Of a DNA stretch of 64,000 bases, positions 36,871-61,931 are shown in pieces. This stretch comes from Phycisphaerae bacterium (lineage in GTDB: Bacteria > Planctomycetota > Phycisphaerae > UBA1845 > Fen-1342), in contig CAXXWX010000026.1 in NCBI GenBank assembly GCA_963675745.2, positions 96,001-160,000 on the forward strand, in the 5' to 3' direction. A program made the position numbers and the translations under genes. Position 1 is the stretch's first letter; each line of letters opens with the position of its first letter. The notes under the pieces were generated by a model that saw only the letters and a list, made by a program, of their open reading frames with translations, was not told the DNA's origin and made no database searches.

Positions 36871-39800
36871 TTAGAACTCGATCGTCACGCTGTTTGAGCA
36901 TTGGGTGGCGCTACCTTCCTCGCATACCTCGTAGGTAAACGAGCCGGTAATGTCCTTGCCCAGGCTATCGCGATAGGCACCGTCATTGGTCGTTGTCGCA
37001 ATTAAGGCGCCGTTGCGATATATGTCCACGTTGGCCCCTACCGCGCCGGTCCATTCGAGATCGACCGTCTGCTTCTGGCCCAGCTTAAAGCCCACGCCAG
37101 TGAGCACGATGCCGGGACTGTCGGGCGTCGTTGCGCTGGCGGTGTTCGAGTACGCCGAGTCGCCGAACCCGTTGGTGGCCCGGACGCGATAGAAGTAGGT
37201 CGTCAGCGCGGACAGGCCGCTGTCAGAGTACGTAGTGACGTTCGCCCCAACCGTGTCGATGGTCGCCCAGGACGCACCATCGAGAGAGCGGTCGATCTCA
37301 AACCCGGACTCGTTGTCCGCGTTGTCGGTCCACCCGAGATCGATCTGGTTGTATGCGACCGCCGTCGCTCCCAGGGCGCTCGGGGCCGCCGGCGGGTCGC
37401 CCGGTCCCGTGTCGGAACGAATGAACATGTGATCGACATAGAGACTGTCCAGCACACGGTTGCCGCTGGTCTGGTCGGTGTCAACCACGCGGATGTACAC
37501 GGTGCCGGCGGTTGATGCTGGCAACGTAAAGGACTGGTACGCGCCGTCATCGCTGGTCTTGACCACCGTGACCATGGGGGTGTAGCTCGCATCGTCGGTC
37601 GAATAAGCGAAGATGAAATGGTCACCCTCGCTCGTCGGATCCTGATACGCGTTGAGATAGAACGTAACCGCGGTGCCGCCGGTCACGTTGATGGTCCACT
37701 TATGCTCCAGGTAGCTGTAGCGGTTCTGCGGCTTGCCGCCCGACTCGCGCTCAGTGAGTATCTCGCTCACGCCGTTGTCGGTCTGCGTGTCCACATACGA
37801 ACCGGATACCGAGCCCTGGACCGGCACGTCAGCGTTGGCAACGTCGTCCACATACTCCGGCGTTTCAGCGACCGTCACCGTTAGTTGATCGCTGGCGGTC
37901 AGAGCGCTGTCGTCGGCTTCCAGTTGAAGCACGTAAGTGCCGGCCGTGTCGAACTGCGCGGTCGTGTCCTCCGTGTTAGCGTCGCCGAACGTCACCGTAC
38001 CCGGGCCACTGACCTTGCTCCACGTAACCGTGAATGCCGCCGGCGGATCGGGCAGGCCATCGTCGGTCACCGTTCCGTCGAGATTCGCGGTCTCCTGGAG
38101 CCCGATCGACTGATCCGGACCGGCGTCAACCGTCGGCGCCTGGTTCGGGCCATCAACCGTGATCGTCACATCGTCGCTCGCCGTCAACTCGCTGTCATCG
38201 GCGGTAAGCCGCAAGACATATGTGCCGGCAATGCTGAACGCCGCGTTTGTATCCTCTACGTTGGCGTCACCGAACGTCACCGTGCCCGGGCCGCTGACCT
38301 TGCTCCACGTAACCGTGAATGCAGCCGGCGGGTTGGGCAGACCGTCGTCGGTCACGGTCCCGTCCAGGTTAGCGACGGCCGGCAGCGTTACGCTCTGATC
38401 GACGCCTGCATTAACACTCGGCGGCTGGTTTGTGATTGTGACCGTGATGACCACATCATCACTTGCCGTCAGTTCGCTATCATCGGCCGTGAGCCGCAGG
38501 GTATATGTGCCGGCAGCGCTGAACGAGGCGGTCGTGTCCTCCGCATTGGCGTCGCCGAACGTCACCGTACCCGGGCCACTAACCTTGCTCCACGTAACCG
38601 TGAATGCCGCCGGCGGGTCGGGCAGACCGTCGTCGGTCACCGTCCCGTCGAGATTCGCGGTCTCCTGGAGCCCGCTCGACTGATCCGTACCTGCATCCAC
38701 CGTCGGCGCCTGGTTCGGGCCATCAACCGTGATCGTCACGTCGTCGCTCGCCGTCAACTCGCTGTCATCGGCGGTAAGCCGCAAGACATATGTGCTCGCA
38801 ACGCTGAACGCGGCTGTCGTGTCCTCGGCATTGGCGTCACCGAACGTCACCGTGCCCGGACCACTGACCTTGCTCCAGGTAACCGTAAACGCGGCCGGCG
38901 GGTTGGGCAGACCATCGTCGGTCACCGTGCCATCCAGGCTTGCGACAGCCGGCAGCGTTACGCTTTGATCAACGCCGGCGTTAACGCTGGGCGGCTGGTT
39001 GACCGGCTCACCGGTCAACCTGGGCGCTGCACAGATCGAGAACGCCTGGGGGCCCTGCGGCACGCTGTACCCTGTTACTTGCACTGTCCACGTGCCCGCC
39101 GCCGGGTTGTTCACCAATACCTGCTCGATGTTGTTTACATGATCGGCCTGCGTCTGGACCGCGGGCGAACTCGGGCTGGCCGGGTTGAGCGTCCATGGAT
39201 ACGCCGGGTGACCGAGCGGATCGAGCACCACCAAGTCCAGGTCATTCACGAGGGCCGGGTTGACGTTCGGCGTGCCGGGGTGATCGTCCCAGGCCAAAGT
39301 CACTTTCAGCAGCGACTCGCCGGCGTTTACGGTGATCGGGTAGGTGACCGTTCCGCCCTGGCTCACCTGATTCTCTTCGAACGCGCCGCTGCGCATGAAA
39401 TCGATAGTGTCCTGGACGCGCACCGAGCCATAGCCGTAAACGTAATCCGGCCCGGTGTTACCCAGATCGACGGCTGTATGCGCGAGCAGGATCTTGCATG
39501 TCGAGTTGCGCGGCGCCGGTGCGGATGGGAACTGGGCGTAGTAATCCTCGAGCACCAGCACGAGGCAACCCGTCACGGTTGGAGCGGCCATCGATGTACC
39601 ACACAGCGTGGTGTATGCCGTGTCGCTCGATGAGTAGCATGATGTGACGCCGTAGTCGCTGCTGCTTTGGCAGCCGGGGCCCACGATGTCGGGTTTGAGG
39701 CGTCCATCGTCAACCGGCCCCCAACTGCTGAAACTGGTCATGGTGTCATTGTTCGAATTGATGGCGCCGACGCAGATGTGGTTCTTTGCGCCGGATGGCG

Positions 39801-41025
39801 GAGCGGTGCTGTAGTAATCGCCATAGCCTTCGATGTCGCAGCGGCTGCCCTGTCGCTCGTTGCCGGCGGACCAGACAACGCGGAACGGAGCACCCAGGCT
39901 CCCGCCGACGATGGCGTCGATCAGCGCCGACGTCACGCCGTAGTCGCCCTGGATCGAACACGAGAACCCGTTCGTTTCGGTGTTGGTGCCGATCGAGTTA
40001 TTCGCGATTTCGGCGCCGTATGTGTTGATCGCCTGGTTGTAATCAGATTCGAGATCGCCCGGGTTGCTGTAGAGGAAGATGCCGCTGCCATCGTACTGGA
40101 ACCCGTACGACACCATCGTGACTCCCGGAGCCATCCCCGCATAGGTGCCACCGCTGGCGGCGCCGCTGCCTCCGACGGTGCCCGCGACGTGCGTCGAATG
40201 ATAGTGCGTGCCGGAGCTGTCACGCACGGTCAGCCGTCCGCCGAAATCGTCGTGCGAAGCGCGTGCCGTTCCGCCGTCGTAGATCATCGCGGTAATCCCC
40301 GAGCCATCCAGGCCGTACGGGGCGGCTTGCACCGTGTCCGCTTGCACGCGCGTCCGGTTGTTGTCGTTGGTCACGGTCATATAGGGCAACGGCGGTTCGA
40401 TCCACATCACCGCGTCGGTATCGGCCAGCGCTTCGAGGTTGGCCCGCGGCAGTTCGATCACCAGGCCGTTCAGCGAAGCAATCTCGGATACGATCAGCGC
40501 GCCGTGCTGCTCCGCGATGGCGAGCCCGTCGTCATACAGCGACACGTCACCATGGAACAGCACATATGCCGCTACAAACTCCTCATCGGTGAGCGGATCA
40601 ACGCCGACTGCGAACTCGGGGTATGCGTTATTGAGGATCGCGGGTGCGAGCTTGTGGGCCCGCGCGATGCCCTGTGCGGCGCGCAATGAGGAGACCGCGC
40701 CGATGGCGCCGGCATCGCAATCTTGTCGCAGCGCGGCGAAGAAGGCGTGATCTCCCAGGTAATTCAACAGACTCAATCCGGCGTCTTTGAGTTCGGCGCG
40801 CTCAGCCGGCGTCACGGGACGCTCAAACTCAACGATTACATGCCGTTCAGCCGGTCGTTCGGCGAGCGCGGTCAACGCTTCGTGGACGGCAACCTGCGCT
40901 TGCGGGCCGTTCGCGACCGCCTCGGCTCTCCAATGAACCGCGGCGGGCACAGGGCGCGCGGCTAGAATCACCATCCCGACACCGACTATGCCGGCGAACA
41001 TCACACGATTCACTCTTGCTCCCAT
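36871..41025 (-). CDS. Secreted S8 (subtilisin-like) serine peptidase with four PKD-like repeats and FN3 domain
   Basis: Triad MIYDGG / HSTHVAGT / [43 protein letters not shown] (FN3). Confidence 0.92.
37861..39000 (-). repeat. Four tandem 285-bp PKD-like units in ABAB order
   Basis: Units start at 39000, 38715, 38430 and 38145 (NQPPSV / NQAPTV alternating); near-identical DNA at 570-bp period. Confidence 0.92.
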
Positions 41026-41482
41026 TAGGGTTCTCCTCTCGCGAACGCGTTCTGCCCGCCATCACGCATTGCCCGTGCGTTTGTACGATTGTATCAAGCA
41101 TGTGGTCACAATCGGGCAACAACTAACGACGGTGAAGATTCGGTCGCCGCTGCTGCGCGCAGTCATCTCTGCCGGCACGCGCGCAAGCGAATATGCACCC
41201 CGGGCATAACTTCACTGTAGTGCTTGGTTTACACAGCGCAGCACGCCACTGAGCGACCAACCATGGCCACCGGCCCACGACGGCCACGGTAACCAGATTC
41301 CATCAGGAATAGTGTCTGTTTGATTCGCCCCGTCCTCCGCGACAAAGAAAGGCTGGCGCGATTTGCGTTAGAGCGGGACAACCCTGGCGATATGACGTCT
41401 TGTGAGATGTGATCGAGAGCCTGTATTACTGAACCCGCAACCACCGCGCAGCCATGCACCACACACCGCCGTCCCGTGTACG

Positions 41483-44400
41483 CTAATCCGGATCTCCGTA
41501 CAGCACGAAGGCGGACCAGTAGTATGGGTGTTCGTACGGGTGGACCGCGTCATCCGGTTCCGGCGGTCGTTGATGGGCCACTTCAGTACCGCGCTCTACC
41601 GCCGGCCCACCAACACTCATGGCGAGCGGACCGCTGCTCTGTAGCTCGCGCACCTCGGCTCGTGTCGCACAGCGCAGCCAGTGTTTCGCTTCGCGCAGCG
41701 CTGCGGCTTTCGGCATGGCAGCGCCGGCGTCATACGTGCGACCAGCAACCGCGCGCGGCGTGTCGAAGCGCCCCAGCAGGTTCTCGTAGAACCGCGTCAT
41801 CAGCAGCGCCGTCGCCGTGTCATCAACCTTCCACAGACTCAGCACCAGGCTGCGCGCCCCCGCCGCGAACAGCGCTTGTGAGAATCCCAGAAAGCCCTCA
41901 CCGCCGCCGGCCTTGCCCAACGCGGTCTGACACGCGCTGAGGGTCACCAGATCCGCGTCCAGCTTCCAGTTGCGGGCGATCTGGTCGGCGGTCAGTCGGT
42001 TGTCGTAGACCCGCCGATCTGCCGGCGCTGTCGCGGGAGAATCCGACGGTTCGTCTTGCGCCAGCAGCAGGGCCGAGCGCATCGAGACCTGATCATCCAT
42101 CACGCCATGTGTCGCGAAGTGGAGGACGCGATAGGTCTGCAACTCACCAGAGTTGGACAGTTCCTCGAGTTTGTGCTCGCTGGCGGCGGCGCCCAGGAGA
42201 ATCGTGGGCGGCTCAGTGGCTGGTAGCCCCTCAAACAGCTTCGCGACCGCGGCGACCTCGCGACGTGACGCCGGCAACGGAGCATAAGACTCGCCACGGA
42301 CGGCCAGCGCACGGGCCAAACGGTGTCGGGCGTTGACGGCATCGGCAACCGGCTGCCGGCTTACGCGCAGGCCGACTTTGCCCGGCGCCACCGACAAGGA
42401 TCGCGTCTGGCCGTCGCGCCACACCTGCACCGGCACGCGCGCCGGTGCAACCTCGGTAGCCGCCGCGCTTGCCTGGTCACCGGCGTCGGAATGCTCACCG
42501 GGCGCCGCGCGGCGCTGGGCGGCGGACTTTATCGCCGGTCCAAGGTCACGGGCGGTCGCCAGTTGCTGGCCATCATAGCTGAGGACAACGTCGCCGGCTC
42601 TCAAACCGCCGCGCTCGGCGTTGGAGCCGGGCAGCACGCTGGCAACCAGTACGCCGTACTCCGGCGGCTCGGACTCGGCGTCGGCATGCTTGTCCCGCTG
42701 CGGGAAGGCCGGATCACCCAGAGCTAGCAACGAGCGCCGGCCCTGCTGTTTTCCCGGTTCAGTATCCTGCCGCCGTTTTTCCACCAGCCACGCGTGCATC
42801 GTCCCGGATGGTGCATAGCTGACCGTGTACTCATCCGTCAGCACCTCGATCGGAATAGGGCTCATCACCCCGGCCGGCAGGATGATCAACTGCTTCACCG
42901 GCGGCCTGGCCGCACCACCTGCGAGGTGTGGTTGTATGGGGGCGATCCGCTGCGCGTACACCCGCTGAATGAGCTCTTCACGTGCCGCCGCCGTGCCGCC
43001 GCCCACCTGGCTGAGGGCGTTGCGGAGCTGGGGAAGCAGTTGGCTGTCCGCCTTGGTCCACGCGCCATCTTCACCACTGCCGGGCAGCTTGACCCAGGCG
43101 GGTGTACCCTGATGCCGCACCACGCAGGCCCAGTGCTCGTCGCCGGCGGAGTTGGCAAGGGCCGTGCTGTTAACATCGAGCCAGGCCACCAGGGCCGCGT
43201 CGATGGGAATCTCGCGTTGGATTTGGGACAGCTCGCGGACCTCGCCGGCCGTGGGACCGTGCCGCTCCCGCATCGTGAGGTTGAACCGAATGAGCTCGGC
43301 CTTGAGCGTCTCGCGCTCGCGCTCCAGCGTGTCGAGCAAGGCATCGCGCTCAGACGTTGCGGGCTTGGCGCGCATGACCGCGATGCGCTCATCCAACCGG
43401 CCGAAGCGACCGACCATGTTCTGTTCGGTCTCGCGCTCCGTCTTCGTCAACGGCCGTGCCTGGCGAAAGGCGATTTCGTCGAGCACGCCGCGTGCGAAGT
43501 GCGCCTCCAGGTGTTGAAAGGCAGCCGCCGGACGATCGAGGTACGCTTGAACGGCGGCGAGGGCGGTGAGCGGTGTGCCGCGCAGCTTGGCCCGTTCGAG
43601 ACCGCCGCTGGCGCTGGCGTGCAGGCGCGCCTTTTCAAACAGCTCGGCGGCTTCGATCAGCAGCGTCTCGGCCTCCGCGTACTCGCCGTTGTCCTTCAGC
43701 AGGATCGCCAGGTTCATCAGGCTGCGCACCGTGTCCGTGTGCTCGCGGCGTGCCGATTCGCGGATCACCGCCAGCGCCTCGCGCAGCAAGTGCTCCGCCG
43801 CCTCAGAATCACCTCTGTCGCGTAGCAGGCCGGCCAGGTTATTCAGCGAATACACGACGTCCGGGTGGTCCGGCCCCAACAGCCGGCGTCGCATGGCCAA
43901 CGCCTCTCGGAGCAACGGCTCGGCCGCGTCGTAATCCCCCTTGGCCGCCAGCAGCGACGCCAGGTTGTGCAGAGTGGCGGCTACGTCCGGGTGCTCATCG
44001 CCCAGCAACTTCCGGCGCAACGCCAGCGCTTCGCGGTAGATCGGCTCGGCCGCCTCGTAATCGCCTTTCTGCTTCAGCAACAACGCCAGGCTGGTGAGGC
44101 TGAGCGCCACGTCCGGATGCTCGTCGCCGAGTAAGCGGCGTTTCATCGCCAGCGCCTCGCGATAAAGCTGTTCGGCCGCGGTGTCGTCGCCTCGGACGTG
44201 CAGCACGTACGCCAGGTTGTGCAGACTGCTCGCCACCTCCGGATGATCGTCGCCCAATGCGCGGCGCCGCCCCGCCAGCACCTCGCGCCTGTACGCCTCG
44301 GCTTCGGCGAACCTGCCCATATCGTCCAGCAGTCCGGCCAGATTATTGAGCGAGGTCAACGTGTTTGGATTGTCCTCACCCAGCACGTGTCGACGTCTGT

Positions 44401-46106
44401 CGAGAACTTCGTGATAGTAGCCTTCCGCCTCGGCGTACGCGCCCATGCGCTCGAGCACAAAGGCCATGTTGTTGATCGACGTCAGAGTTCTCGGATGGTC
44501 GTCGCCCAATATACGACGGCGGGTCTGCAACACGTCGCGAAAATACGTCGCGGCCTCTTCATAGCGGCCCATTTTCTCCAAAAGCCAGCCCAGGTTGTTG
44601 ACCGTGGTCAGCGTATTGGGGTGATCCACGCCGAGCACGCGCCGGCAGCCGTCGACCGCCTCACGTTGGTAGTGCTCCGCCTCGCTGTACCTGCCCAGCG
44701 TAACCAGCACACTGCCCAGACTGCTGAGCGTTGCCAGTGTTCCGTAATGCTCGTCGCCAAACACGCGCTGCCTGATTTCCAGGGCCTCGCGGAGATGACG
44801 CTCGGCCTCCGCGTACTTGCCCATCTGGGCCAACAGCAGCCCCATGCCATTGATGATCGTCAACGTGCGCGAATCTTCATCGCCACAGACCTTGCGGAAC
44901 CCGGCCAATGCCTCACGGTAGTACGGCTCGGCTTCCTTGGGCTTTGCGCATGTAGATAAGCGCTGTGCCCATGCTACCGATGGCCTCCAGTGTCCGAGTG
45001 TCTTCCGGGCCCAGGACACGCCGCGCGGTCGCGATGGCCCGTCCATAGACTGTAGCGGCATCCTGGTAGGCGCCCATGTCGAGGAGGATGTCACCCAGGC
45101 CTCTGAGCGCGTTCAACGTGTCTGGGTTGTCGGGGCCAAGCAGTCGGCACCTCGCCGCAAGAGCCGCGCGGGTCAACGCCCCCGCCCGCGCAGCGTCGCC
45201 ATTCTGTTTCGTCGACACCGCCAGGTTGACCAGGCTCACCACCGTATGGGGATGCTCGCCGCCCAGAGACGCCTGCCAGTGCGCCCACGCCTGTCGATAG
45301 AGCACTTCGGCGGCCTCTTCGCCGCCATTTTCCCGCAACAGCGATCCGAGATCGTTGAGTAGTCTGGCCACGTCCGGGTGCTCGTCACCCAGCATGTGGC
45401 GACGGATCGCCAATTGCTGTCCGATTTCCGCCAGTGTCTGGTCCGTTGTTGTCTCTTCTGATTCGGACCTAGCACGGTAGGCGGCGCTCAGGCCGACGCG
45501 CCCTTCAGGCGGGAGTCTCAGTTGATGACGCAAGTCGTCGATCAGCCGCTGAGCGTCGCCGATCTCGAACCAGGTAGCCGGCGCACCGTCAGCATTCGTC
45601 CAACCGGACTGATATCTCTCGCGGATCGCCAGCACACGTTCGGCCAGTTCCAGCGCCTCGGCTAACGCGGCGTCTTGCGCCTCGGTGTCGTCACCTTGAA
45701 GGCCGCTGCGGCGTAGTCCGTCGACGCGTTCCTTGAGTGCATCAACTTCGAGTTTGACATCCTCGGGCAGCTCAGGCCTCGGCAACGCGGCCCCATCGAG
45801 CAGCGCCAGGACTTCCTCCAACGTCGGGATCGGCGCCAATGAGCTGAGAATCTCGTCAGTCGTCGGCGGGCTCAGGCTCTTGATGAACGCATCCAGATCA
45901 AACGCCGCCCCGATCGCCAGCAGCTCCTCTTCACTCATTGACCGCTCAGCGCCCTCTCGAGACGCGGCGGTTTGTTCGGCATCGACGTCACCGTTTCCTC
46001 GGGAGTTCGCTGTCTGGCCACAAGCCGCATGAGCCGTGACCGTTGTCATGGATAGAGCCACCGCCAGGAAGGCGCCGTGCGTGATCCAACTGCTTTTGCG
46101 TCCCAT
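41483..46106 (-). CDS. Secreted TPR-CHAT protease with PDZ insertion (copy 1); apparent +1 frameshift near 44940-44945
   Basis: Signal peptide MGRKSSW...TAHA; ~14 42-aa TPRs; HFATHG and LSACQT dyad; SLWKVDD; HPYYWSAFVLYGD; PDZ GVLVASVLPGSNAERGGLRAGDVVLSYDG. Removing one base restores an exact 42-aa repeat and gives 1540 aa. Confidence 0.88.
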
Positions 46107-46190
46107 GCTTGTTCCCCGATGGTTGATCAACGTTGTTCGTGGTCCGCGTCGTGCCGGTCTCAACTGCGCCCTGGGAGGAATCGACAATCG

Positions 46191-47984
46191 CTACGGCTCC
46201 CTGGGCCGAACCGGCATCGCTATGACTCGCACGGCATCAAACGCGGGGTCGCCGGCGAGTTGCCGCGCGACCGCCTCCATGGCGCCGGGCGCAGTCCGAT
46301 GCTCCATCTCAATGCCGCGATTGCCGGGCTCCTGACGCCAGATGGCCTGGCCGTCCGAAGTCCACACGGTCGGCGTGTTGGCGGCGAATGAACCTGGATT
46401 CGAGCTGCGCCACGCCGCTTCGAGCAATGCGCGGCCCGGCCAGTCCGCGTAGCGCGGCAACGGCTCCCGTGAAGCTACCACTGCGAACGCTTGCAGGCCC
46501 GGCCCGTCGGTCAAGTGATAATGCACGTTTCCGCCGGGATAACGCGCTGCGGCAAGCCGATCCGGCGGAACGCCATCCTGCCGAGGGTACTTGCAGGATA
46601 CGCTGCCGTTCGTGTCAAAGACCAGCAGGTAGTAATAGGCCGGTTGGCTTAACGTTGTTGCAAGCTGGACACCGTCGTCGCCGACGACCGCCCAGGAATC
46701 CACGCCGATCCGGCCGAGCAGTCGGCCGGCGGAATTCGGATCGCGGTAGTCGTCGTAACGATAGTGCTCCAGCGCCAGCGGATCGATGCGCAGGTCGCCG
46801 GCCATCGCGCGTTTGGTCTGGTGACCCTTCATTGGCTCGATGGGCTTTGGCCAGATACCGTTTGCGAATGCGATCATCGCGATCACGGCCGCGGCGATTG
46901 CGCCGATCCAGATCCACGCCCCGCGACGAGGTGGAGCAATTTCCACCGCGGCGCCCCCGGCATTCCGAAGCGCGTCGGCGACGTCCTTCATCGACGGAAA
47001 ACGCTGGCTCTTGTCCTTGGCGATGCAGCGTTTGATGGCCCTGGTCAGTGCCGGTGCCACACCCCGGGTCAGCTCTTGCAGCGCGCGCTGCGGCACCAGT
47101 GACTCGTGCGGCGACACACCGGTGAGCAATTCCGACAGCAGCACGCCTAGCGCGTACTGATCCGCCGCCGGCGTACCGGGCCCCTCGGGGGGGCAGTAGC
47201 CACGCGTGAAGCCGCGCCCGCTGGATTCATCCTCGCTGCGCCGCATGAGCCCGTAGTCGGTCAGTTTCCACGCGCCGCCGTGGCGGATCACGTTGCCGGG
47301 CTTTACATCGGCGTGTACAGCGCCGCACTCGTGCAAATGCGCGAGAGCATCGGCGAGCGCGGCCCCGATCTGGGCCGCTTCGCGGGCCGGCAGGTGTCCG
47401 GCGCGGTTGAGCTTGATGCGCAGCGTCAGCGGCTGATAGTCACCAGGAACCACGACCGGCGAGCTGCCGTTGGCGTTGTCGGCCAGCGGCATGAGGGCGT
47501 AAAGCCAGTCACCGGCCGCCCCGACATCCTCGATGGCCAGCAAATGCGGGTGTTCGCCGACGCGCTGCTTGAGCGTTCGCAGGCCGTCCAACTCGAGTGG
47601 CGTGTCGCGACGGAAGAGCTTGGCCGCGCGAAAGTGCTCGGTGTAAGTGTTCCGCGCCAGCCAGACCTGGCCAAAGCCACCCTTCCCCAACAGACGCAGC
47701 AGCTCGTGGTTCGGAATCTGCACAGGCGGTTCACACGCGGTTTCGGGCTGCACAGCCCCGTCAGAGGCCGGCTGCGGGGAGGTGATCGTCTCGTCTGGCG
47801 CGCCAGGTGATGAAGTCAGCACGGGGTCCAGGTTTGCCCGCCTGGCCACGAAGTCGGCGAAGCCACCATCGAAGCCGCGCCGACAAGCCCGCTCAAAGGC
47901 CTCATGCACCGACTCCAGCCAGCCGCCATCAGTCCGGCGTGATGGCTCGTCGCGCTCCCCGGTATGATTGCTGCTGCTCGCCAT
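46191..47984 (-). CDS. Membrane Ser/Thr protein kinase with extracytoplasmic DUF4384-like domain
   Basis: LGKGGFGQV, AAK, HADVKPGN, DYG, TRGYCPPE, DQYALG; TM WIWIGAIAAAVIAMIAF; GDDGVQL..SQPAYYYLLVFDTNG...GLQAFAVVASREPL. Confidence 0.88.
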   Translation of the reverse strand: MASSSNHTGERDEPSRRTDGGWLESVHEAFERACRRGFDGGFADFVARRANLDPVLTSSPGAPDETITSPQPASDGAVQPETACEPPVQIPNHELLRLLGKGGFGQVWLARNTYTEHFRAAKLFRRDTPLELDGLRTLKQRVGEHPHLLAIEDVGAAGDWLYALMPLADNANGSSPVVVPGDYQPLTLRIKLNRAGHLPAREAAQIGAALADALAHLHECGAVHADVKPGNVIRHGGAWKLTDYGLMRRSEDESSGRGFTRGYCPPEGPGTPAADQYALGVLLSELLTGVSPHESLVPQRALQELTRGVAPALTRAIKRCIAKDKSQRFPSMKDVADALRNAGGAAVEIAPPRRGAWIWIGAIAAAVIAMIAFANGIWPKPIEPMKGHQTKRAMAGDLRIDPLALEHYRYDDYRDPNSAGRLLGRIGVDSWAVVGDDGVQLATTLSQPAYYYLLVFDTNGSVSCKYPRQDGVPPDRLAAARYPGGNVHYHLTDGPGLQAFAVVASREPLPRYADWPGRALLEAAWRSSNPGSFAANTPTVWTSDGQAIWRQEPGNRGIEMEHRTAPGAMEAVARQLAGDPAFDAVRVIAMPVRPREP

Positions 47985-47987
47985 GGG

Positions 47988-50900
47988 TCACTCCGAATCG
48001 CCGTAGAGGACAAAGGCGGACCAATAGTATGGATGTTCGTAGGGTCGGCGTACACTGGTTGCATCCGGTGCCGCGTGGTGTGTCATCTCTGTCCCACGGT
48101 CGGCAGCCGGGACATTGTCCACCATCGCAAGCGGCCCGGTGCTTTGTAGCTTGCGCACCTCGTCCCGCGTCAGGTGTCGCAGCCAACGCTTGGCCTCATC
48201 CAGCGCGGCCAGTTTTGGCATTGGCGTGCTCGGGACATACGTCCGGCCATGCACTTCACGTGGTTGGCTGTACGTCCCCAGCAGGTTCTCGTAGAACCGC
48301 GTCATCAGCAAGCTCGTCGCGGTGTCATCCACTTTCCAAAGGCTGGCGATCACCGTCTCCGCGCCTGCGGCGAAGAAACCAAGCGGCAAGGTCATCATGC
48401 TGCCACCGCGCTGTACGCCACGGCCGGTATCGCAGGCGCTGAGCACGACCAGCTCGGTGCCGTCGAGACGCCCCAGCCAGCGCTGGAACAACTCGTCGAG
48501 TGTCAGGAAGCCAATGTCGTCCGGCGTCGGCTTGTCGGGACGCGCCAGCGCCAGGCTGGCCTGCTCGGGATGGTCGGCATTGCCCGTGAGCCCGTGCGTG
48601 GCCAAGTGCAAGATGCGCGGCGGCTTTTTGCCGAAGGACACATTGCGCAGGCGCGGGGCCGATGCGGCGCCGCCAAGCAGGGTGACTGGTTCGACGCCAG
48701 CTTGATCCAGAAGCTCCGCAATCGCACCCGCTTCGCGCCGCGTGCCGGGCAGAGGCCTGAGCGACCCGCCGTGCAGGCGGATCTGGTCGAGCGCAGTGGC
48801 GTCGGCCCACTGTTCACTCGGCGCCTGATCGAAGAATGCCATTGAACGCAAGCCGGAGGCGGGCGAAGCCGGCGACGGCACGATTCCCAAGCGTCCGACG
48901 GCCAGGCGCGCTTCGAACGTCTCACCGTCACGCCACACGCCGGCAACAACAGGGCGACTGCTGTCGTCCCGGCTTTCGCCCGCAAAGCGTTTACTCGCGG
49001 CTGCAATGGCCGGGCCCAAGTCAGCGACGCTGCGCAGCGATTGCTCGGCATAGCTGAGCAGCACATCACCACGCCGCAGGCCGCCAGCAGCGGCATTGGA
49101 GCCGCGCTGCACCATCGCCAGCAGCACGCCACCCTCCGGATATTTCGGCTCAGCGACTCCGCCGCCGCCGAAATCGGGATCGCCTATCACAACTGCCCGC
49201 GCCGCGACCGCCCGCGCCCGCGCGGCGGCCCGGCGACGATCCATGGCGACGGTCGCCGATGGTGCGTATGCAATCGGCTTGTCCTCGGTCAGAAGTTCGA
49301 ACGGGATACCGTGCAGCGGCCCATCCGGGACAACGATCAACGTTGCGGCGTCGGCGATCGTGGCCTGCAACATTGCCGGTAGCAACGCCTCTCGCAGCTC
49401 AGCAACCGATGTCGGATTCAAAACCCGCGCTGTGCTCGGGCGCTTGGCAAGCGGTTCTCGGAGCCGCATAACCAGCTTCTCCAGCCGCTGGACCTCTTGC
49501 GGGCCCTTGGACAAGCGCCAACCCTGCACGCCGTTCCGATCGGCCGCAAGAACCGCCACGAGGTCGTCGGTCCAAATGATTGACAGCAGCATCTCGCCGG
49601 TTGCCAGAGCCGATTGAATCTCTGACACCTGCAACGGCTCAGCGGCCGGGATCAGATGTCGAATCTCGGCGAAGACTGCGGCGGCCTTTTCGCCGAGTTG
49701 GCGACGCAGGCTCGTCACCCGCGCATCCGCTTCCGTGATAAGTTGATCGAACTCGGCGACTTTGGTCGCGCGCTCGGTATCGGTCAGCGATTCGAGCGCT
49801 TCACAGGCTTTGCGCTGTCCGCGCAGGACCGGCAGGCGCCATTCAGCGGCGCGCACAGCCGTCTGCGCCGCGGCCTCAGCTTTCAGAGCCTGTTCGAGCC
49901 GCGCCGCGGCTCCGGTGTCACTGTTCGCGCGGGCCGCGCCGATCAGGTCCGGCTCTTCGCGCGATAGCAGGTCCAATGCCGCCCGCGCGCGGCCCCGCTC
50001 AGCGACCGCCAACGCTTCCACGAAACGCTTGTCCTCAATCAGCAGATCGCAATAGGCCGCCGCGATGGCGGAGAGGCGCAGCCGGCCCGCGAAAGCCGCC
50101 CGCTCCTGCAACCCGCCGACGACATCGACGCGCAGGCGCTCCGCCGCGGCCAGCGTCTCCCGATAGAGCGGCTCGGCATCCGCCAGCCGGCCCTGCGCCG
50201 CCAGCGTGCGGCCCAGGCTGTTGATGGTCGCGAGCGTTCGTGGGTGCTCAGCGCCCAGCGCGCGACGACTTATTTCCGCCACACGCCGCAAGCAACGCTC
50301 GGCCTCCGCCGGTTTGTGCTGTGCGAAAAGCAGGGCGCCCATGTTGTTGAGCGCAGCAAGCGCGGCGGGATGTTCCTCGCCCAGCACGCGGCGGGTGCCC
50401 TCCAGGGCCTGTCGATAGTACGGCTCCGCCTCCGCCAACCGGCCCTGCAATTCGAGCAAAACGCCCATGTCGTCCAGCGAGCGCAGCGTCTCCGGGTGAT
50501 CCACGCCCAGAACGCGCTTGCGGCCCTCCAACGCCTGCCGCAGGTACGGCTCGGCCTCGGACAGTCGACCACGCTCCGCCAGCAAGATCCCCATGTTCTG
50601 GAGCGAAGCCAGCGTGTCAGGGTGCTCGTCACCCAGCGCGTATTGCCGGTCCTCGAGCGCCTGCAGCAAATACATTTCCGCCTCGGTATAACGCCCCTGT
50701 TCCTGAAGCAGAGCGCCCACACTGCTGATTGCGCTGAGGGTGTCAGGGTGGCTATCGCCCAAAACGCGGCGGCGGCCTTCCAGCACCTGTCGCCAGTACG
50801 GTTCCGCCTCGGACAGTTGGCCCCGGGCCTGGAACAGGTACCCCATCCACGCAATCGAGCTCAGCGTGTCCAGATGCTCCGCGCCCAGTACGCGGCTGCG

Positions 50901-52457
50901 GAGATCCAGCGCCTGCCGCAAATACGGCTCGGCCTCGGACAGCCATCCCTGCTTCGCGAGCAGGGCCCCCATGTTGCTGATCAGCGTCAACGTGCTCGGG
51001 TGCTCCGCGCCGTAGACGCGCTGATGACCCTCCAGCGCCTGCCGGTAATAAGGCTCAGCCTCGGCAAGCCGGCCCTGCGCGACGAGCAAAAGGCCCATCC
51101 TGTTCATCGATTCCAGCGTCTCTGGGTGATCGGCGCCAAGTACATGCAGTTGGCCGTCCAGCGCCTGTCGGCAATACGCCTCGGCTTCGGGCAGGCGACC
51201 TTGTGATCGAAGCAGAGAACCCATTCTGCTCAGCGACATCAGCGTTTCCGGGTGGTTCGCACCCAGAGTGCGGCGACGGCCCTCCAACGCACGCCGATAG
51301 TACTGCTCGGCTTCCACAAGTTGGCCCTGCGCCTCGAACAGACTGCCCAGATTGTTGCAGCTGGTCAGCGTATTGGGGTGATCCTCGCCCAGCAAACGTT
51401 GCTGGCCCTCCAGTGCCAGCCGCCAGTAGTGCCCGGCTTCGGCCAGCCGACCCTGGGCATGAAGCAGCACGCCCATGTTGTTAACCGCAGTCAGGGTGCT
51501 TGCGTGATCCTCGCCCAGCACACGGCGGCGCCCTTCCAGTGTCTGCCGATAGTATGGCTCGGCCTCACCGAGCCGACGCTGCTCCATAAGCAGGATGCCC
51601 AGGTTGCTGGCGGCGGTCAGTGTTTCCGGGTGTTCCGCGCCCAGCACGCGGCAATAGCCCTCCAGTGCCTGCCGATAGTATGGCTCAGCCTCGCACAGGC
51701 GCCTCTGCGATCGAAGCAGGCGCGCCAGCCAGGCAATCGAGTTCAGCGTTTCCGGGTGTTCCGCCCCCAGTGTGCGACGATAGCCCTCCAGTGCCTGCCG
51801 CCAATACTGCTCGGCCTGCGCCAGTTGGCCTTGGGACTGAAGCAGGCAACCGACCCAGGACTGCGCGCTGAGTGTGTCCAGTTGCTCTTCGCCAAGTGTA
51901 CGACGGCAGATGCTGAGTTTGCGCTTGGCCAGCGCCAGGGCTTGGGCATGCTCCCGGGCAGCGTAGAGGCGGGCGAGTTCGGCCTCCGCCCCATCGAGCG
52001 AGGCGATCTCAGCCCGGGAACCGGCATCGAGCGCGCGTAACCGACGCAAGCGTTCGAGCTTCCTTGTCGCGTGAACTACCTCGTACCACACGCTCGGTTC
52101 ACCGGACGTTTCGCGCCAACGAACCACCTCCAGCGTGTTTCCCTGATGCTTCTCACGCAGCCCTAGCACGCGTTCGGCAAGCCGGATTGCCTCATCGAGC
52201 GCGGCATCCTGCTTCACCGTCGACTCCATCGTCAGCCCGTGCTTCTCCAAATCAGCGACCCGCTGCTCCAATCCGGCCACCTCCGCCGCGAGTTCTTCCG
52301 GCAATGTCGGGCGCGTAATTTCGAGTGGGCGGAGTTCCGCCGGTGGCCGGTTGGGGTCGGGCGTCGCTGTGGCAATGCTTGGCTGAGCAACGCAAGCCAG
52401 CAAAGCAGCGATCAGCATCGCTGATTCACTCAATCGGAGTGGGATGGCTGAGAGCAT
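47988..52457 (-). CDS. Probably secreted TPR-CHAT protease with PDZ insertion (copy 2)
   Basis: GGAGG before ATG; hydrophobic N-terminus MLIAALLACVA; ~14 42-aa TPRs; VPDGPLHGIPFE, HLATHG, LSACDT, SLWKVDD, HPYYWSAFVLYGD; PDZ GVLLAMVQRGSNAAAGGLRRGDVLLSY. Confidence 0.9.
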   Translation of the reverse strand: MLSAIPLRLSESAMLIAALLACVAQPSIATATPDPNRPPAELRPLEITRPTLPEELAAEVAGLEQRVADLEKHGLTMESTVKQDAALDEAIRLAERVLGLREKHQGNTLEVVRWRETSGEPSVWYEVVHATRKLERLRRLRALDAGSRAEIASLDGAEAELARLYAAREHAQALALAKRKLSICRRTLGEEQLDTLSAQSWVGCLLQSQGQLAQAEQYWRQALEGYRRTLGAEHPETLNSIAWLARLLRSQRRLCEAEPYYRQALEGYCRVLGAEHPETLTAASNLGILLMEQRRLGEAEPYYRQTLEGRRRVLGEDHASTLTAVNNMGVLLHAQGRLAEAGHYWRLALEGQQRLLGEDHPNTLTSCNNLGSLFEAQGQLVEAEQYYRRALEGRRRTLGANHPETLMSLSRMGSLLRSQGRLPEAEAYCRQALDGQLHVLGADHPETLESMNRMGLLLVAQGRLAEAEPYYRQALEGHQRVYGAEHPSTLTLISNMGALLAKQGWLSEAEPYLRQALDLRSRVLGAEHLDTLSSIAWMGYLFQARGQLSEAEPYWRQVLEGRRRVLGDSHPDTLSAISSVGALLQEQGRYTEAEMYLLQALEDRQYALGDEHPDTLASLQNMGILLAERGRLSEAEPYLRQALEGRKRVLGVDHPETLRSLDDMGVLLELQGRLAEAEPYYRQALEGTRRVLGEEHPAALAALNNMGALLFAQHKPAEAERCLRRVAEISRRALGAEHPRTLATINSLGRTLAAQGRLADAEPLYRETLAAAERLRVDVVGGLQERAAFAGRLRLSAIAAAYCDLLIEDKRFVEALAVAERGRARAALDLLSREEPDLIGAARANSDTGAAARLEQALKAEAAAQTAVRAAEWRLPVLRGQRKACEALESLTDTERATKVAEFDQLITEADARVTSLRRQLGEKAAAVFAEIRHLIPAAEPLQVSEIQSALATGEMLLSIIWTDDLVAVLAADRNGVQGWRLSKGPQEVQRLEKLVMRLREPLAKRPSTARVLNPTSVAELREALLPAMLQATIADAATLIVVPDGPLHGIPFELLTEDKPIAYAPSATVAMDRRRAAARARAVAARAVVIGDPDFGGGGVAEPKYPEGGVLLAMVQRGSNAAAGGLRRGDVLLSYAEQSLRSVADLGPAIAAASKRFAGESRDDSSRPVVAGVWRDGETFEARLAVGRLGIVPSPASPASGLRSMAFFDQAPSEQWADATALDQIRLHGGSLRPLPGTRREAGAIAELLDQAGVEPVTLLGGAASAPRLRNVSFGKKPPRILHLATHGLTGNADHPEQASLALARPDKPTPDDIGFLTLDELFQRWLGRLDGTELVVLSACDTGRGVQRGGSMMTLPLGFFAAGAETVIASLWKVDDTATSLLMTRFYENLLGTYSQPREVHGRTYVPSTPMPKLAALDEAKRWLRHLTRDEVRKLQSTGPLAMVDNVPAADRGTEMTHHAAPDATSVRRPYEHPYYWSAFVLYGDSE

Positions 52458-53161
52458 TGCCCGGACCCTCCCGAAAATGGTCCTTGCGAGATATGTGCAC
52501 TCCCCAGCAGAGTTACTATGGCAGCGCGATGCGGCCGCGCCAAGTGAAACGCCGGAATCAGGCCGCGCGCGGGCGCGGCACGACGCCCCCCCCCTGAGCC
52601 GTCGTGCCTGCGCCGCGTGGAACGTGTTCGCCGACTACACGGAAAAGACTTCCCAGAGTCTGGTGAGGATCGCCGACACGAACTCGCCCGCGTTGTAGAG
52701 CAACGGCTGAATGAAGGCCTGCTGATACATGTGCAATCTCCTCATGGCACGCGTGGCCAGGCGATGAATCCGGACGATCCGAATTCCTGCTCACGGTCGC
52801 CTGCTTACCGTGGCGGGCGGTCGCGATTGTGTTGCTCAAGCAACCGCCTGCCTTTCACCCCTTCATGCGTAATTGCGGGCGGACATTGCGGAAAACTCCT
52901 GTTTTTTTTCTGAGAGAGGAACGGAAGCCGACATGGACGACGTACTAACGGGCTTCAGGAGAGTCTGTTGCTCAGAAGTGTGCCACGGCTCTGTGAGCCG
53001 TGCGTTTTGCGGCAAGGCGGTACTGCTCAAGAGCACTCCACCCGTTTCATGACGACGGCCTGCGAGGCGCAGGCCGCTACTGTGCCATACGCGCAAGACA
53101 ATCGCATCGGAGACGGCGCTAGTGCGTAAGACGCCAGGGTTGCGCCGGGGAACCCACGTGA

Positions 53162-53725
53162 TCACGTGTCGAGGGTTGCCGCCCGCGCCAGCCAGTCCTT
53201 GGCCTTCTGCCAGTCGCGGCGAACAGTCTTGACCTCGACACCCAGAATGTCAGCGATGTCGGCGTCTTTCAGGCCGGCGAAAAACCGCAGCCGCACCACC
53301 TCCGCGGCGCGTGCGTCGACGTGCTCGAGTTTGCCCAGAACGGCGTTGACATCGACCGCATCGAGCGCGCGCTCATCGACGGCGATCTGGGCGGGGTCAA
53401 TATCGGCTCTCTGCGCCTCCCCGCCGCGCTTCGCCGTGCGCCGCTTGCGGGCCGCATCGATCAGCACCTGGCCCATGGCTTGGGCGAAGGCCCCGAACAG
53501 ATGACGCCGGTTCGCCAGCGCCGCCTCGTGCCCGCCGAATACCTTGCAAAACGCCTCGTTTACCAGAGCCGTCGGCTGCAATGTGTGATCCTGGCGCTCG
53601 CGCGCCATCCGGGCGGCGGCCATGGCGCGCAACTCATCCACAACCAGCGACATGAGCTGGTCGAGCGCTCCCGACTCTCCTGTCCTGACCCCTTGCAGCA
53701 GTTTCGTGATCTCGGCGGGTTCCAT
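53162..53725 (-). CDS. ECF sigma factor, TIGR02999/ECF43-type
   Basis: ITKLL..ALDQLMSLV.DELRAMA, HTLQPTALVNEAF, VVRLRFFAGL, TVRRDWQKAKDWL. Confidence 0.92.
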   Translation of the reverse strand: MEPAEITKLLQGVRTGESGALDQLMSLVVDELRAMAAARMARERQDHTLQPTALVNEAFCKVFGGHEAALANRRHLFGAFAQAMGQVLIDAARKRRTAKRGGEAQRADIDPAQIAVDERALDAVDVNAVLGKLEHVDARAAEVVRLRFFAGLKDADIADILGVEVKTVRRDWQKAKDWLARAATLDT

Positions 53726-53835
53726 CTGCGGGCGCTCGCCCCATCTGCTTTTGTCGGATTTGATGTCCGCGCGCCTGTACAGCGCCCGCATGGTACTACG
53801 AGGACCGCAGGGTAGCCACAGAAGGAGGAACTTCA

Positions 53836-54090
53836 ATGCACGACCAGGCAACAGACCAGGCAACAGACCAGGCAACCGCACCGGCCCCGCGTGTTCGCAC
53901 GGAAACCGGCCGCTGGCTCACGCACGCCGCCCGGCTCGTCCGCGATCCGCGGGCTGAGCTTGTGAGGCTCGTCCGTGAACTGCGCAATCAAACCTCGTTG
54001 CCAAGCGCCAGACGCCACCGAAGGCGCCACGCGGCCGCCGGGTTTGGCGGGCGTGACGCCAAGACACGTTTTGCCGAAGCAGAAGACTGA
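53836..54090 (+). CDS. Small basic hypothetical protein with DQAT repeats
   Basis: Strong AAGGAGG Shine-Dalgarno at normal spacing before ATG 53836; divergent from the sigma gene. Confidence 0.5.
   Translation: MHDQATDQATDQATAPAPRVRTETGRWLTHAARLVRDPRAELVRLVRELRNQTSLPSARRHRRRHAAAGFGGRDAKTRFAEAED
53842..53877 (+). repeat. 12-bp tandem repeat x3 (GACCAGGCAAC[A/C])
   Basis: GACCAGGCAACA GACCAGGCAACA GACCAGGCAACC read directly. Confidence 0.9.
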
Positions 54091-54183
54091 ACAGAGGACG
54101 CGCGGGCGCCGGTCAGATTCTCCCGGACCATCATAGACCGCCGCAGGCAAAACGTGCGGAACGGAATGACGATCGTACGCGCC

Positions 54184-54675
54184 CTAGTCGATTGCCGGCT
54201 CGAGCGGCTCACCACCGTCCGGCGTTGCCCAGGCCGGCGGCTCGTCGTCCGGCCCGGTTGTCTCGTGGTTCTGGAGATCCAGGGTCGCGACAATGCGGGA
54301 AGTGTCGCGCTGCACGAACCACACCTTCTGTCCCGTCTCGTCCCGGCGCGCCTCCACATTCTCAAATCGACATTGTCCGCGCGGAACGCCAAACTTGAGC
54401 TCAACTGTCTTCACAGCCTGCTCGAAACGGAGTTGCTGGCGCGGCCTGACCACCACGCGAAGTTGTTCGCACTCGCGATCCGGTTCTCCAGCCTCATGTT
54501 CCTGCAGTCGGTCGCAGGTCAGTTCAATCTCGCGGCACTCGTCGAGTCCCGCGCTGCACAATGTCTGCATGCGGACTCGCGTGGACGAAGTCCGCGACGA
54601 TGAGCAGCCGACACTTACGACTACCAATGCCGCTACCAGCCCAACCTTGCCGTACCAAGCCATAAGCTGAATCAT
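54184..54675 (-). CDS. Hypothetical lipoprotein
   Basis: Hydrophobic stretch ending VSVGC then SSS; GGGAG RBS. Confidence 0.65.
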   Translation of the reverse strand: MIQLMAWYGKVGLVAALVVVSVGCSSSRTSSTRVRMQTLCSAGLDECREIELTCDRLQEHEAGEPDRECEQLRVVVRPRQQLRFEQAVKTVELKFGVPRGQCRFENVEARRDETGQKVWFVQRDTSRIVATLDLQNHETTGPDDEPPAWATPDGGEPLEPAID

Positions 54676-54821
54676 TGTCTATCTCCCAGCCTGAGCACAC
54701 AATTACTCGAATACCACGCCGACGCCCCGTGTTTCGCGCGTCCGGCTCAGATCGGCAGCTCCGCCACACGCCGGCGATACGCCTCTACCCCGGTTGCAAA
54801 CAATGCCTGCGGTGAACATGG

Positions 54822-56654
54822 TCACCGCATTCGCCTGGCGGCAATCGAGCCGCTTGGGCGATGGACTACCGCCCCTGTCACGCGCCCGCTCTCGTCATAG
54901 CTGATCTCGATCTTCGAGCGCCCCTGGCCGATGATCTGCAAGAGAGTCGTGCTGTAGGGCGCCATCTCGCGCTCCGGCTCGCCGGGCACCTGCACGATCA
55001 ACTTGGGGCCGTCTCGCAATTCCACGTTGATAATGACGCCTTGGAATTCATACTGCCCGGCAATCGTGCGGAGGAACTCAGGGTTGTTACGCAGCGCTTC
55101 ATCAAACACACGGGCGAACACGATGTCGTCAATCCCGCGTCCTTCCACTTCGGGCTGAAGCTCGATCTCGACGCTTTCAATCTCGCCGAACATGCTGACC
55201 GGAAAGCGGACAGGCAGGTTGTCGAATTCTGCAACTTCGTGCTTCGTGAGGAAGATGTTGTATCTAACGTGCTCGAGTGGCGCGGCTGTCTCGCCATTGA
55301 AGATGACGCTCAGCGAACCCCCTTCGACCTTCACCGCTACACGGCCATACGCCGGGTGTTCGTACACACCGGCCAGGTCCTTAAGTTGATGCGTGGGCCC
55401 GGCGGCATGATCGCTACCGGCGTCAACCCGAGTCTGCGCGCCCGCTTCATCGCTACTCTCATCTGTTGAGGGCAAGACACGGGCTGTCCAATCATCGCCA
55501 AGGTCCAGCAACCTGTGGTAGACATGGTAGTTGAGCCAGAGTGGCAGCAACTGGTGCCCTCTGTTGCTCAGCACGACCACGCCAATGTTGTCGCGGGGCA
55601 TGATGCTCACCCATGACACAAAACCATCAATCCAGCCGCCATGGTGTACAAGGTAATGGCCGCGATACGGCCGAATGGTCCAGCCCAGGCCATAGGCCTC
55701 CATCGGCCCGGAGGCGTCCTCGGGTGTGTATCGAATGGGCATCTGCGGCGTGTGCATTTCCCTCAGGACGGCGGGCGAGACGAGTTGGCGACCGTCTATC
55801 CGACCCTGATTCAAATACAGTTTCAGCCACTCGGCCATCTCCTCGGCGCTGGAGATGATCCCGCCGGCGGGAGCGGCCACGGATCTTGTGGGGAAAGGCA
55901 CGACGGCCACCTCGCCGTGCTTCTTCTCGTACGGGATGGCGACGTCATCCAGCTCGCTGACGTGTCTGCCGCGAAACGTGCTGCGCTTCATGCCCAGCGG
56001 CTTGAAGACCCGCTCGGAGATGAACTCTTCCCAGGTCCCGCCGGCGACCTTTCCCACCAGGTACCCGGAAGTCATGTACATCAGGTTGTTGTACTGGTAA
56101 ACCTCGCGGAGCTCCGCCGTGGGTTCCAGATACCTCAAACGCCGGTAGATCTCCTCTCGGCTGAAGGGCGTGGCGGCTATCATCATGTAGTGGCCGGGAA
56201 GGCCGCTGCGGTGCGCGAGCAGGTCGCGCGGCGTGGCGTGCAGCGTGGCATACTCGGCGTACAGGCGGAAATCCGGAAGATACTCGACCACCGGCGTGTC
56301 CCAGTCCAGCTTGCCCTCATCGACGAGCATTCCGACCGACAGCGCGGTGAACGGCTTTGAGACGGAGCCTATCGCGAAGAGTGTCTGGGGCGTAACCGGC
56401 AGGCCTTTCTCGACATCTCTGACGCCGAATCCCTCCGTGTAGATGACCTCGCCGTCTCTGACGACGGCCACAGCCATTCCCGGCACCTCCCACTGGTCCA
56501 TCAACTTCTCGACATGCTTGTCAAACCCGTCGAATGCCCCAGGCAGAGCAGGCGCCGGCCCGGGGCGATCCTGGGCCTCACCAGTAACCGCGCTCGCGAT
56601 GGACAGGCATACCGCGACCAGGCAAACAACCAGCGGCATTCGTCGCATGCACAT
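54822..56654 (-). CDS. Secreted serine hydrolase (beta-lactamase class C/PBP-like) with DUF3471-like domain
   Basis: FAIGSVSK (SxxK), LLAHRSG, YQYNN (YxN), HHGG, GVYEHPAYG. Confidence 0.9.
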   Translation of the reverse strand: MCMRRMPLVVCLVAVCLSIASAVTGEAQDRPGPAPALPGAFDGFDKHVEKLMDQWEVPGMAVAVVRDGEVIYTEGFGVRDVEKGLPVTPQTLFAIGSVSKPFTALSVGMLVDEGKLDWDTPVVEYLPDFRLYAEYATLHATPRDLLAHRSGLPGHYMMIAATPFSREEIYRRLRYLEPTAELREVYQYNNLMYMTSGYLVGKVAGGTWEEFISERVFKPLGMKRSTFRGRHVSELDDVAIPYEKKHGEVAVVPFPTRSVAAPAGGIISSAEEMAEWLKLYLNQGRIDGRQLVSPAVLREMHTPQMPIRYTPEDASGPMEAYGLGWTIRPYRGHYLVHHGGWIDGFVSWVSIMPRDNIGVVVLSNRGHQLLPLWLNYHVYHRLLDLGDDWTARVLPSTDESSDEAGAQTRVDAGSDHAAGPTHQLKDLAGVYEHPAYGRVAVKVEGGSLSVIFNGETAAPLEHVRYNIFLTKHEVAEFDNLPVRFPVSMFGEIESVEIELQPEVEGRGIDDIVFARVFDEALRNNPEFLRTIAGQYEFQGVIINVELRDGPKLIVQVPGEPEREMAPYSTTLLQIIGQGRSKIEISYDESGRVTGAVVHRPSGSIAARRMR

Positions 56655-60471: not shown

Positions 60472-60741
60472 GAACATCCCTTTCATTCTCCGGCCTCAGT
60501 TCTTCTTTCTTGCTGCCGCAATCAGGGCCAAAGCGGCCCTGTCCGGTTACACCCAAAGGCCAAGCTCCCTGGGGTCCACAAGAGAGTTCGAACGAGACGG
60601 CGAAATCGGCCGCCAGGAGGGGAATTGTTTTCCAAATTTGTGACCAGACCGGCCAAGGACCACGGCGCGTGCAGGATAACTCGATCGCGTTCGTGGCGGC
60701 GGAGAGTGTTGGGTCGGGCACAGGTAAGAAAGGTGCGCGGG

Positions 60742-61566: not shown

Positions 61567-61676
61567 CCCTTAAGCTCCCGAGGCCATCACGACCAGCCGA
61601 CACACTATCTCGGCTGTGCAATGCACGACCACCCCGGCGGTGGAGGCGCCCTCAGAAATGCCCAAATGGGCCGAGC

Positions 61677-61898: not shown

Positions 61899-61931
61899 GT
61901 CGATCGCTCCTGAGGCTCCATCCGCTCAAAG

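Follow-up and report, generated by a model that had tools for sequence, protein, structure and literature searches.

Several described bacterial systems tie a sigma factor of the extracytoplasmic function (ECF) type to a CHAT protease or to a Ser/Thr kinase; we refer to them, and to other cited work, as they appear in the parts of the sources available to us. In DdvA/DdvS of Myxococcus xanthus, an extracytoplasmic TPR-CHAT protease with a His/Cys dyad is tied to an ECF sigma (PMC11506125). The TPR-CHAT protease of type III-E Craspase (Csx29/Csx30/RpoE) cleaves a partner in control of an ECF sigma (10.1101/2022.08.17.504292), and in EcfK-PknS and EcfP-PknT a TIGR02999 sigma, with QPTA for DAED, stands in a string with a single-pass kinase (PMC13147305, PMC8999054, PMC7826278). 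CHAT, sigma and Ser/Thr kinase genes are clustered in the Haliangium SAVED-CHAT/PCaspase/PCc-sigma/PCk system, where proteolytic activation of the kinase has been hypothesised (10.1101/2023.06.23.546230). Here we analyse a locus with parts of this kind in a Phycisphaerae bacterium (GCA_963675745.2). The window, the whole stretch of DNA analysed, comprises 64,000 nucleotides (contig CAXXWX010000026.1, positions 96,001 to 160,000), and open reading frame (ORF) and Pfam/NCBIfam analysis identified four genes on its minus strand, in the order sigma, CHAT-A protease, kinase and CHAT-B protease (Table 1). The proteases and the kinase are very probably functionally coupled, and we consider it probable that the proteases directly recognise a short Arg-Gly (RG) peptide that they share with the predicted outer domain of the kinase.

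DdvA gave the best PDB sequence match to the catalytic half of the protease (8rot, E 1e-12; fold Z 22.5). Unlike the proteins of this locus, however, DdvA is one polypeptide that joins an anti-sigma, a transmembrane helix and TPR-CHAT and is released by RseP proteolysis (PMC11506125); here the protease is separate, probably exported and carries a PDZ domain, and the membrane partner is a kinase. Pfam detected no anti-sigma domain in the four genes, and both proteases begin with signal-like peptides. DdvA lacks a three-helix motif in the available part of its description (PMC11506125), whereas the CHAT-A model has three helices after the WKVDD strand. Csx29 matches the CHAT-A fold (Z 23-27), and DUF4384 makes up one group of the C-terminal domains of Csx30, but Craspase is cytoplasmic, is activated by RNA via Cas7-11, cuts after Met or Leu and, as far as the source text goes, includes no kinase (10.1101/2022.08.17.504292). 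Cas7-11, Csx30, Csx31 and any other cas gene were absent from the 22 window ORFs scanned, a scan that did not extend to the whole window or the genome. In EcfK-PknS and EcfP-PknT the kinase follows the sigma directly (+1) and has a TPR ectodomain, in contrast to the kinase described here, which stands at +2, has a DUF4384-like ectodomain and is without the usual N-terminal module. The Haliangium system differs in being a nucleotide-activated CRISPR effector cascade with, in the text available, neither an exported protease nor an ectodomain, and its kinase activation is hypothetical (10.1101/2023.06.23.546230). ECF54 sigmas lie beside a TPR-CHAT protein and a subtilase, as at this locus, where an S8 gene lies 458 bp downstream of CHAT-B, but they are actinobacterial and are described without a kinase; ECF25 anti-sigmas have DUF4384 as an outer domain, and neither entry, in the part of the classification available, connects DUF4384 to CHAT (PMC7826278). 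A literature search, outside whose scope lay subscription journals and bioRxiv supplements, returned no description of an exported CHAT protease with a DUF4384 kinase or of the peptide that the two have in common. The parts are known from DdvA, Csx29/Csx30 and EcfK/PknS, and their combination appears undescribed in the literature searched, in agreement with an earlier note on this DNA, made from the sequence alone, which knew of no system with this layout. The TPR-CHAT protease that the same note had cited, Csx29, is cytoplasmic, but to take such proteases in general as cytoplasmic is outdated, given that the TPR-CHAT of DdvA lies in the periplasm and governs an ECF sigma (PMC11506125).

Gene neighbourhoods lend good support to a tie between protease and kinase. 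Loci were gathered by a profile of the kinase ectodomain alone (A1, 13 sequences) from 16 metagenome loci, 15 of 15 foreign places, one full set, 19 of 21 and 35 of 46 (11 dropped, ORF <350 aa). Removal of own-window duplicates and two near-identical loci left 92 loci with the domain, 68 of them on a kinase; 49 of these kinase loci, which are partly related, had at least 4.5 kb downstream and could be scored. A CHAT gene lies within 5 kb in 43 of the 49 and within 1 kb in 36, and the proportion within 5 kb is 40/46 after removal of three seed loci, compared with only 1/49 for other kinases in the genome. Among the 19 kinase loci with a short downstream region, four show CHAT and four more a TPR fragment. 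For the genome search A3, only rows covering CHAT were used since TPR matches swamped it. The earlier note had called for a neighbourhood survey of CHAT+PDZ proteins; ours, by ectodomain, upheld the pairing of CHAT with a DUF4384-like kinase, but not the PDZ domain (10 of 47 partner proteases) or the ECF43 sigma (4 of 59 kinases) as regular members. Judged by its sequence, the locus is a real, conserved module with a putative signalling function. In other contexts, DUF4384-like domains without a kinase were found near or fused to caspase-like C14 peptidases (L033, L062, L073, L088, L122), and in one case fused to TPR-CHAT (L066).

Further support for coupling comes from a loop peptide, overlooked in the earlier note, that is common to three proteins of the locus: NRGIEMEH in the kinase, DRGTEMTH in CHAT-A and ERGTEVAH in CHAT-B. 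Every ectodomain compared (13/13) has this Arg in a gappy loop, and R1454 and G1455 of CHAT-A are found in 72/75 and 60/75 protease homologues, in a gappy loop just before the HPYYW box. The models of the kinase ectodomain and of CHAT-A are confident except in the RG loops, where confidence is lowest. On contig C19, a stand-alone CHAT paralogue has ERGAEVAH, and the second module of the genome uses another code, RGTIRER in the kinase and RGTVRER in the protease. That module (G000:C26:7379-17695, L014) consists of a non-ECF43 sigma, a TPR kinase, a DUF4384-like kinase and a PDZ-CHAT protein. Elsewhere in the assembly, the CHAT genes at G000:C26:72-2627 and 59147-63544 encode identical N-termini over 70 residues, and one ECF43-kinase pair is present in identical form on two contigs (C15:60385-63922 and C27:6114-9651); both repetitions may reflect duplication or bin redundancy (6% contamination).

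Partner loops resemble each other across loci. Of 43 pairs, 37 remained once those >50% alike had been removed. When the loop of the ectodomain was compared with that of the protease, the best ungapped 8-mer scored 22.2 in partners but 17.3 in non-partners (permutation p 1e-5), with the partner ranked first in 9/37. RG was present in 25/37 and 23/37 loops, where shuffles averaged 13.5 and 9.9. For the 17 pairs with RG on both sides, the six residues after RG scored 9.5 versus -2.1 (p 1e-5), the partner was ranked first in 11/17, and against the closest related protease the partner won 11 times, tied once and lost five times; the four residues before the Arg showed no significant partner difference (p 0.07). 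Exact or near-exact matches vary by locus, for example RGSFTGKK/RGSFTGKK and RGTVLSRP/RGTVLARP, a variation that common descent by itself would not account for. The six residues after the Arg are likely to form a specificity code that separates parallel modules of one genome. Since the matching lies beyond the Arg, it suggests prime-side recognition or a tethered agonist. In the latter scheme, which we regard as doubtful, the kinase would be a protease-activated receptor: the cut after the Arg, made by an exported protease of separase-like kind, would unmask an N-terminal hexapeptide on protease and receptor that serves as a tethered, module-specific agonist, giving a self-amplifying response, insulated against paralogous modules and passed by phosphorylation to the sigma.

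Both proteases retain the putative catalytic residues. The CHAT profile (PF12770, clan CD) scores ~200 bits in both, over the cut-off, and in CHAT-A Pfam finds 14 TPR_10 stretches, CHAT (E 8e-59) and PDZ_6 (E 2e-5). His/Cys motifs are intact in the two proteases (HLATHG/LSACDT and HFATHG/LSACQT), and the CHAT-A dyad H1288/C1342 is invariant in 75/75 homologues. The structure predicted for CHAT-A residues 735-1489 is confident (predicted local distance difference test, pLDDT, 90.5; 46-54 in the RG loop) and its fold matches Csx29, separase and DdvA (Z 22-27). D1378 is also invariant in 75/75 homologues; by sequence comparison the position is Ser in a Leu-cutting Csx29 and Asp in DdvA. The equivalent Asp of separase binds the P1 Arg (Arg pocket). 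Separases cleave after Arg (PMC11506125), and D1378 together with the invariant Arg suggests a preference for Arg in these CHAT proteases.

Because the pairing is conserved across many related bacteria and the peptide is common to both partners, the proteases likely cut the kinase. A ligand of the TPR or PDZ part would activate the proteases, which would then cleave behind the Arg, both in the loop that they carry themselves and in the predicted outer domain of the kinase. A cut in the latter, ~40 residues from the kinase C-terminus, would release the final helix and strand or lay bare a new N-terminus and so switch the kinase, which might in turn phosphorylate the upstream ECF43 sigma at T52. 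We hold this sequence of events to be slightly better supported than not, and within it we lean, somewhat more firmly, towards cleavage over docking. Docking would mean that the peptide is recognised and not productively cut: the protease copy would be a securin-like pseudosubstrate obstructing the groove, the ectodomain copy would displace it or dock the protease, and the kinase would be activated by clustering. Such a mechanism fits the co-variation and the common motif equally well; some partners carry RD, RS, RA or RQ instead of RG, and separase is controlled by an inhibitor in its groove (PMC11506125). We nevertheless consider it unlikely, as the dyad is invariant in every homologue and the fixed point is the Arg and not the residues before it, as expected of a P1 residue. 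Of the proposal in the earlier note that exported proteases cleave or engage the ectodomain, the functional tie stands, through co-occurrence and the co-varying peptide, and the cleavage or binding itself is what we infer.

Several points weigh against cleavage of the kinase by its neighbours. For six of the 49 kinases the 5-kb surroundings hold no CHAT gene, and the link is one-way, with such a kinase at 0/9 further CHAT loci of the same order. RG is missing from one of the two windows searched in 20/37 pairs, 6/17 RG pairs are not ranked first (four with negative scores), and the p-values overstate the effect because the loci are related. Known CHAT sites vary, Csx29 cutting after Met or Leu (10.1101/2022.08.17.504292), and the self-cleavage of DdvA is proposed and unproven in the account available (PMC11506125). 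By eye, six of the nine further CHAT loci (L125, L126, L127, L129, L132, L133) have CHAT beside an ECF sigma and a small protein with a single membrane pass (zf-HC2 in two cases), in a split DdvA-like layout; outer parts resemble the ectodomain, again by eye only. Pfam found no additional sigma among 22 upstream ORFs that our own profile had passed over.

Both proteases are likely exported. By our own hydrophobicity heuristic their N-termini are signal-like, as are those of 77 of 92 long Met-starting homologues (among the 120 matches listed), compared with 57/552 internal windows. The earlier note had described these N-termini, together with ~14 TPRs (14 and 13 TPR_10 stretches here), an intact dyad and a PDZ insert in both proteases, and had also reported four co-oriented genes, a kinase start 3 bp past the stop of the upstream protease, a single transmembrane helix with an ectodomain in the kinase, and QPTAL in the sigma where most ECFs have DAED; our analysis agrees on each. 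Its idea of DegS-like PDZ-protease sensing fared less well. The PDZ domain, inserted within the CHAT region of both proteases (~residues 1103-1200 of CHAT-A), is absent from 37/47 partner proteases and is an accessory, optional add-on, so DegS-like gating at the heart of the system is unsupported. DegS and HtrA have a trypsin-like domain gated by a PDZ whose ligands are C-terminal peptides, whereas this protease belongs to clan CD with its PDZ inside CHAT. The best fold match of the CHAT-A PDZ is the permuted-type PDZ of RseP, and HtrA-family PDZs are weak matches by sequence. The PDZ conserves G-x-L-G-I, a motif like that of the carboxylate loop; a PDZ-ligand pattern was not found in the C-termini of 10 PDZ-partnered kinases compared with 37 others.

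The kinase has a Pkinase match with the catalytic motifs GKGGFG, K122, HADVKPGN and DYG, and its only hydrophobic stretch (356-374) follows PPRRG. DUF4384 (PF14326) is below threshold (22.6 bits against a gathering score of 27, E 1e-4), but the homologue P0005 passes at 30.8 and the top Atlas matches for the ectodomain are DUF4384 (0.91-0.93). This domain has been reported as the C-terminal domain of a kinase (10.1101/2025.01.12.632604). The ectodomain (~395-597) is a predicted beta-sandwich (pLDDT 91.6), lowest in the block with the RG loop (66). Foldseek returned no match at E 0.001 in the PDB, and the best Z, 6.7 with Ig-like and macroglobulin MG domains, was not above background. A full-length kinase query of the genome contigs yielded 13 loci by the kinase domain only, none of which, several being short, had an ectodomain or CHAT profile match.

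The sigma scores 183.7 bits on TIGR02999 (cut-off 126.15) and matches PF07638 at E 4e-45. T52 lies within QPTAL at the position of the EcfK/EcfP phosphosite, where the ECF43 consensus is QTTA (PMC13147305). As far as sequence can tell, it is an ECF43-type sigma but not one of a canonical pair, in which a kinase, usually with a TPR ectodomain, stands at +1; here CHAT-A intervenes. We regard output through this sigma as the weakest step of the scheme, with the chances about evenly balanced. A kinase lies within 141 bp of 9/11 ECF43 sigmas of the genome, compared with 5.2 kb for this one, and the sigma does not group with those of genome G169. The kinase scores 1.4 bits (E 2.8) on the profile of ECF43-linked kinase N-termini, on which a close homologue, P0002, reaches E 3e-12. 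An ECF sigma of any kind lies within 1.5 kb of 21/59 related kinases and within 6 kb of 29, with ECF43 adjoining only the four already mentioned. Protease and kinase could accordingly form a unit of their own, with the ECF43 gene a separate neighbour or remnant and the kinase acting on another sigma or substrate. The 704-bp gap between sigma and CHAT-A, which contains a repeat element as well as the leader also present before the stand-alone paralogue, favours such an arrangement, as do the missing ECF43-type N-terminal module (the other common N-terminal type reaches only E 0.5) and the rarity of ECF43 near these kinases. It is nonetheless improbable in our view: the sigma, unlike 9/11 in the genome, has no other adjacent kinase, G169 has an ECF43 directly before the orthologous kinase type and a second one directly before another PDZ-CHAT, and the full string ECF43-kinase-PDZ-CHAT occurs in both G169 and G772. 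The claim of the earlier note that the kinase phosphorylates the sigma was thus not established, given the gap with its own leader, the kinase N-terminus and the neighbourhood counts.

The named homologues come from Phycisphaerae and other Planctomycetota, and the family is patchy, present in 4/300 genomes of the class (one query, E 1e-30). Patchiness, the stand-alone protease with the same code on C19 (RGAEVAH) and the control of anti-predator defence by EcfK (PMC13147305) are in keeping with a different role, in which the proteases would be secreted outputs for competition or defence and the ectodomain loop a bait that reports protease activity of self or neighbours, the proteases then not being the sensors. 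We think this quite improbable. The CHAT proteases characterised to date are signalling enzymes of narrow action under allosteric control (PMC11506125, 10.1101/2023.06.23.546230), and the flanks hold no toxin or secretion genes except a subtilase.

CHAT-B is split into two frames in the assembly (424 aa + 1203 aa), which the earlier note overlooked together with the 704-bp gap. One extra base at 44943 causes the split; it is absent from one contig in each of 3/3 runs (contigs only, from two samples of one study, which may be the source data). Several extra bases in the second module of the genome, elsewhere on the contig, are also missing from these runs. Because contigs of all three runs lack this and other extra bases, we take it to be most likely an assembly error and CHAT-B to be intact, at ~1540 aa with 13 TPR_10 stretches (3+10). 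A real frameshift or pseudogene was rejected on the same contigs. The second module (L014) likewise has several frame breaks that are not present in the read contigs.

Table 1. Features of the protease-kinase locus (positions in the window)
Feature	Position	Strand	Description
ECF43-type (TIGR02999) sigma factor	53162..53725	-	187 aa; QPTA motif, T52
Short genome repeat element	52978..53094	.	28- and 25-base ends with 50 and 39 exact occurrences in genome
Leader block	52565..52894	-	88% identity to region upstream of stand-alone CHAT paralogue, contig C19
31-codon ORF in leader block	52635-52730	-	behind GAGGAG; frame kept in both leader copies
CHAT-A	47988..52457	-	1489 aa; signal-like peptide, 14 TPRs, PDZ inserted in CHAT
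CHAT-A peptide DRGTEMTH (R1454)	48078..48101	-	low-confidence loop before HPYYW box
Hanks-type Ser/Thr kinase	46191..47984	-	597 aa; one transmembrane helix, DUF4384-like ectodomain
Kinase peptide NRGIEMEH (R556)	46299..46322	-	ectodomain loop; candidate cleavage or docking site
CHAT-B	41483..46106	-	signal-like peptide, ~13-14 TPRs, PDZ, CHAT with intact dyad; split at 44943 in assembly
CHAT-B peptide ERGTEVAH	41573..41596	-	loop matching that of CHAT-A

The kinase starts 3 bp past the CHAT-A stop, and CHAT-B 84 bp past the kinase. The repeat element (52978-53094) is REP-like (repetitive extragenic palindrome) or MITE-like (miniature inverted-repeat transposable element) and probably lies outside the signalling system. 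The leader block extends over 330 bp, and its 31-codon ORF (52635-52730; L017:11733-11825), 87% identical between the two CHAT leaders and without a match elsewhere in the genome or the collected loci, is possibly a leader peptide or a small membrane protein. An Rfam scan of 41000-55000 gave zero matches, no sigma-70 promoter was matched at the locus, and terminators were no commoner than in shuffles. The co-oriented S8 subtilase downstream (36871-41025, minus strand) is exported, with four PKD repeats and Fn3; the RG dipeptide is absent from it and we do not count it among the parts of the system. Elsewhere, the window encodes a glutamate dehydrogenase and, after it, three genes with a PPDK_N domain, in the third of which a nucleotidyltransferase domain is fused on (24416-30702, plus strand), and two large exported-looking proteins of 865 and 816 aa (33880-36477 and 58036-60486, minus strand), one with cysteine-rich segments, neither of which has any Pfam match.

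This window contributes an arrangement of two PDZ-bearing proteases around one kinase, a pair of different codes within the same genome and a bias of the matching to the prime side. For the Hanks kinases by which ECF sigmas are switched on in such bacteria, no signal is known to activate them, and the CHAT self-cleavage proposed for DdvA could not be tested for want of a trigger. At this locus the protease, the candidate substrate and the candidate site of cleavage are distinct and identified down to the residue, and a genome with two modules of different code suits a specificity swap. If the proposed cleavage is true, it would provide a substrate for a large family of exported CHAT proteases that lack annotation and would represent proteolytic switching of a bacterial receptor kinase.

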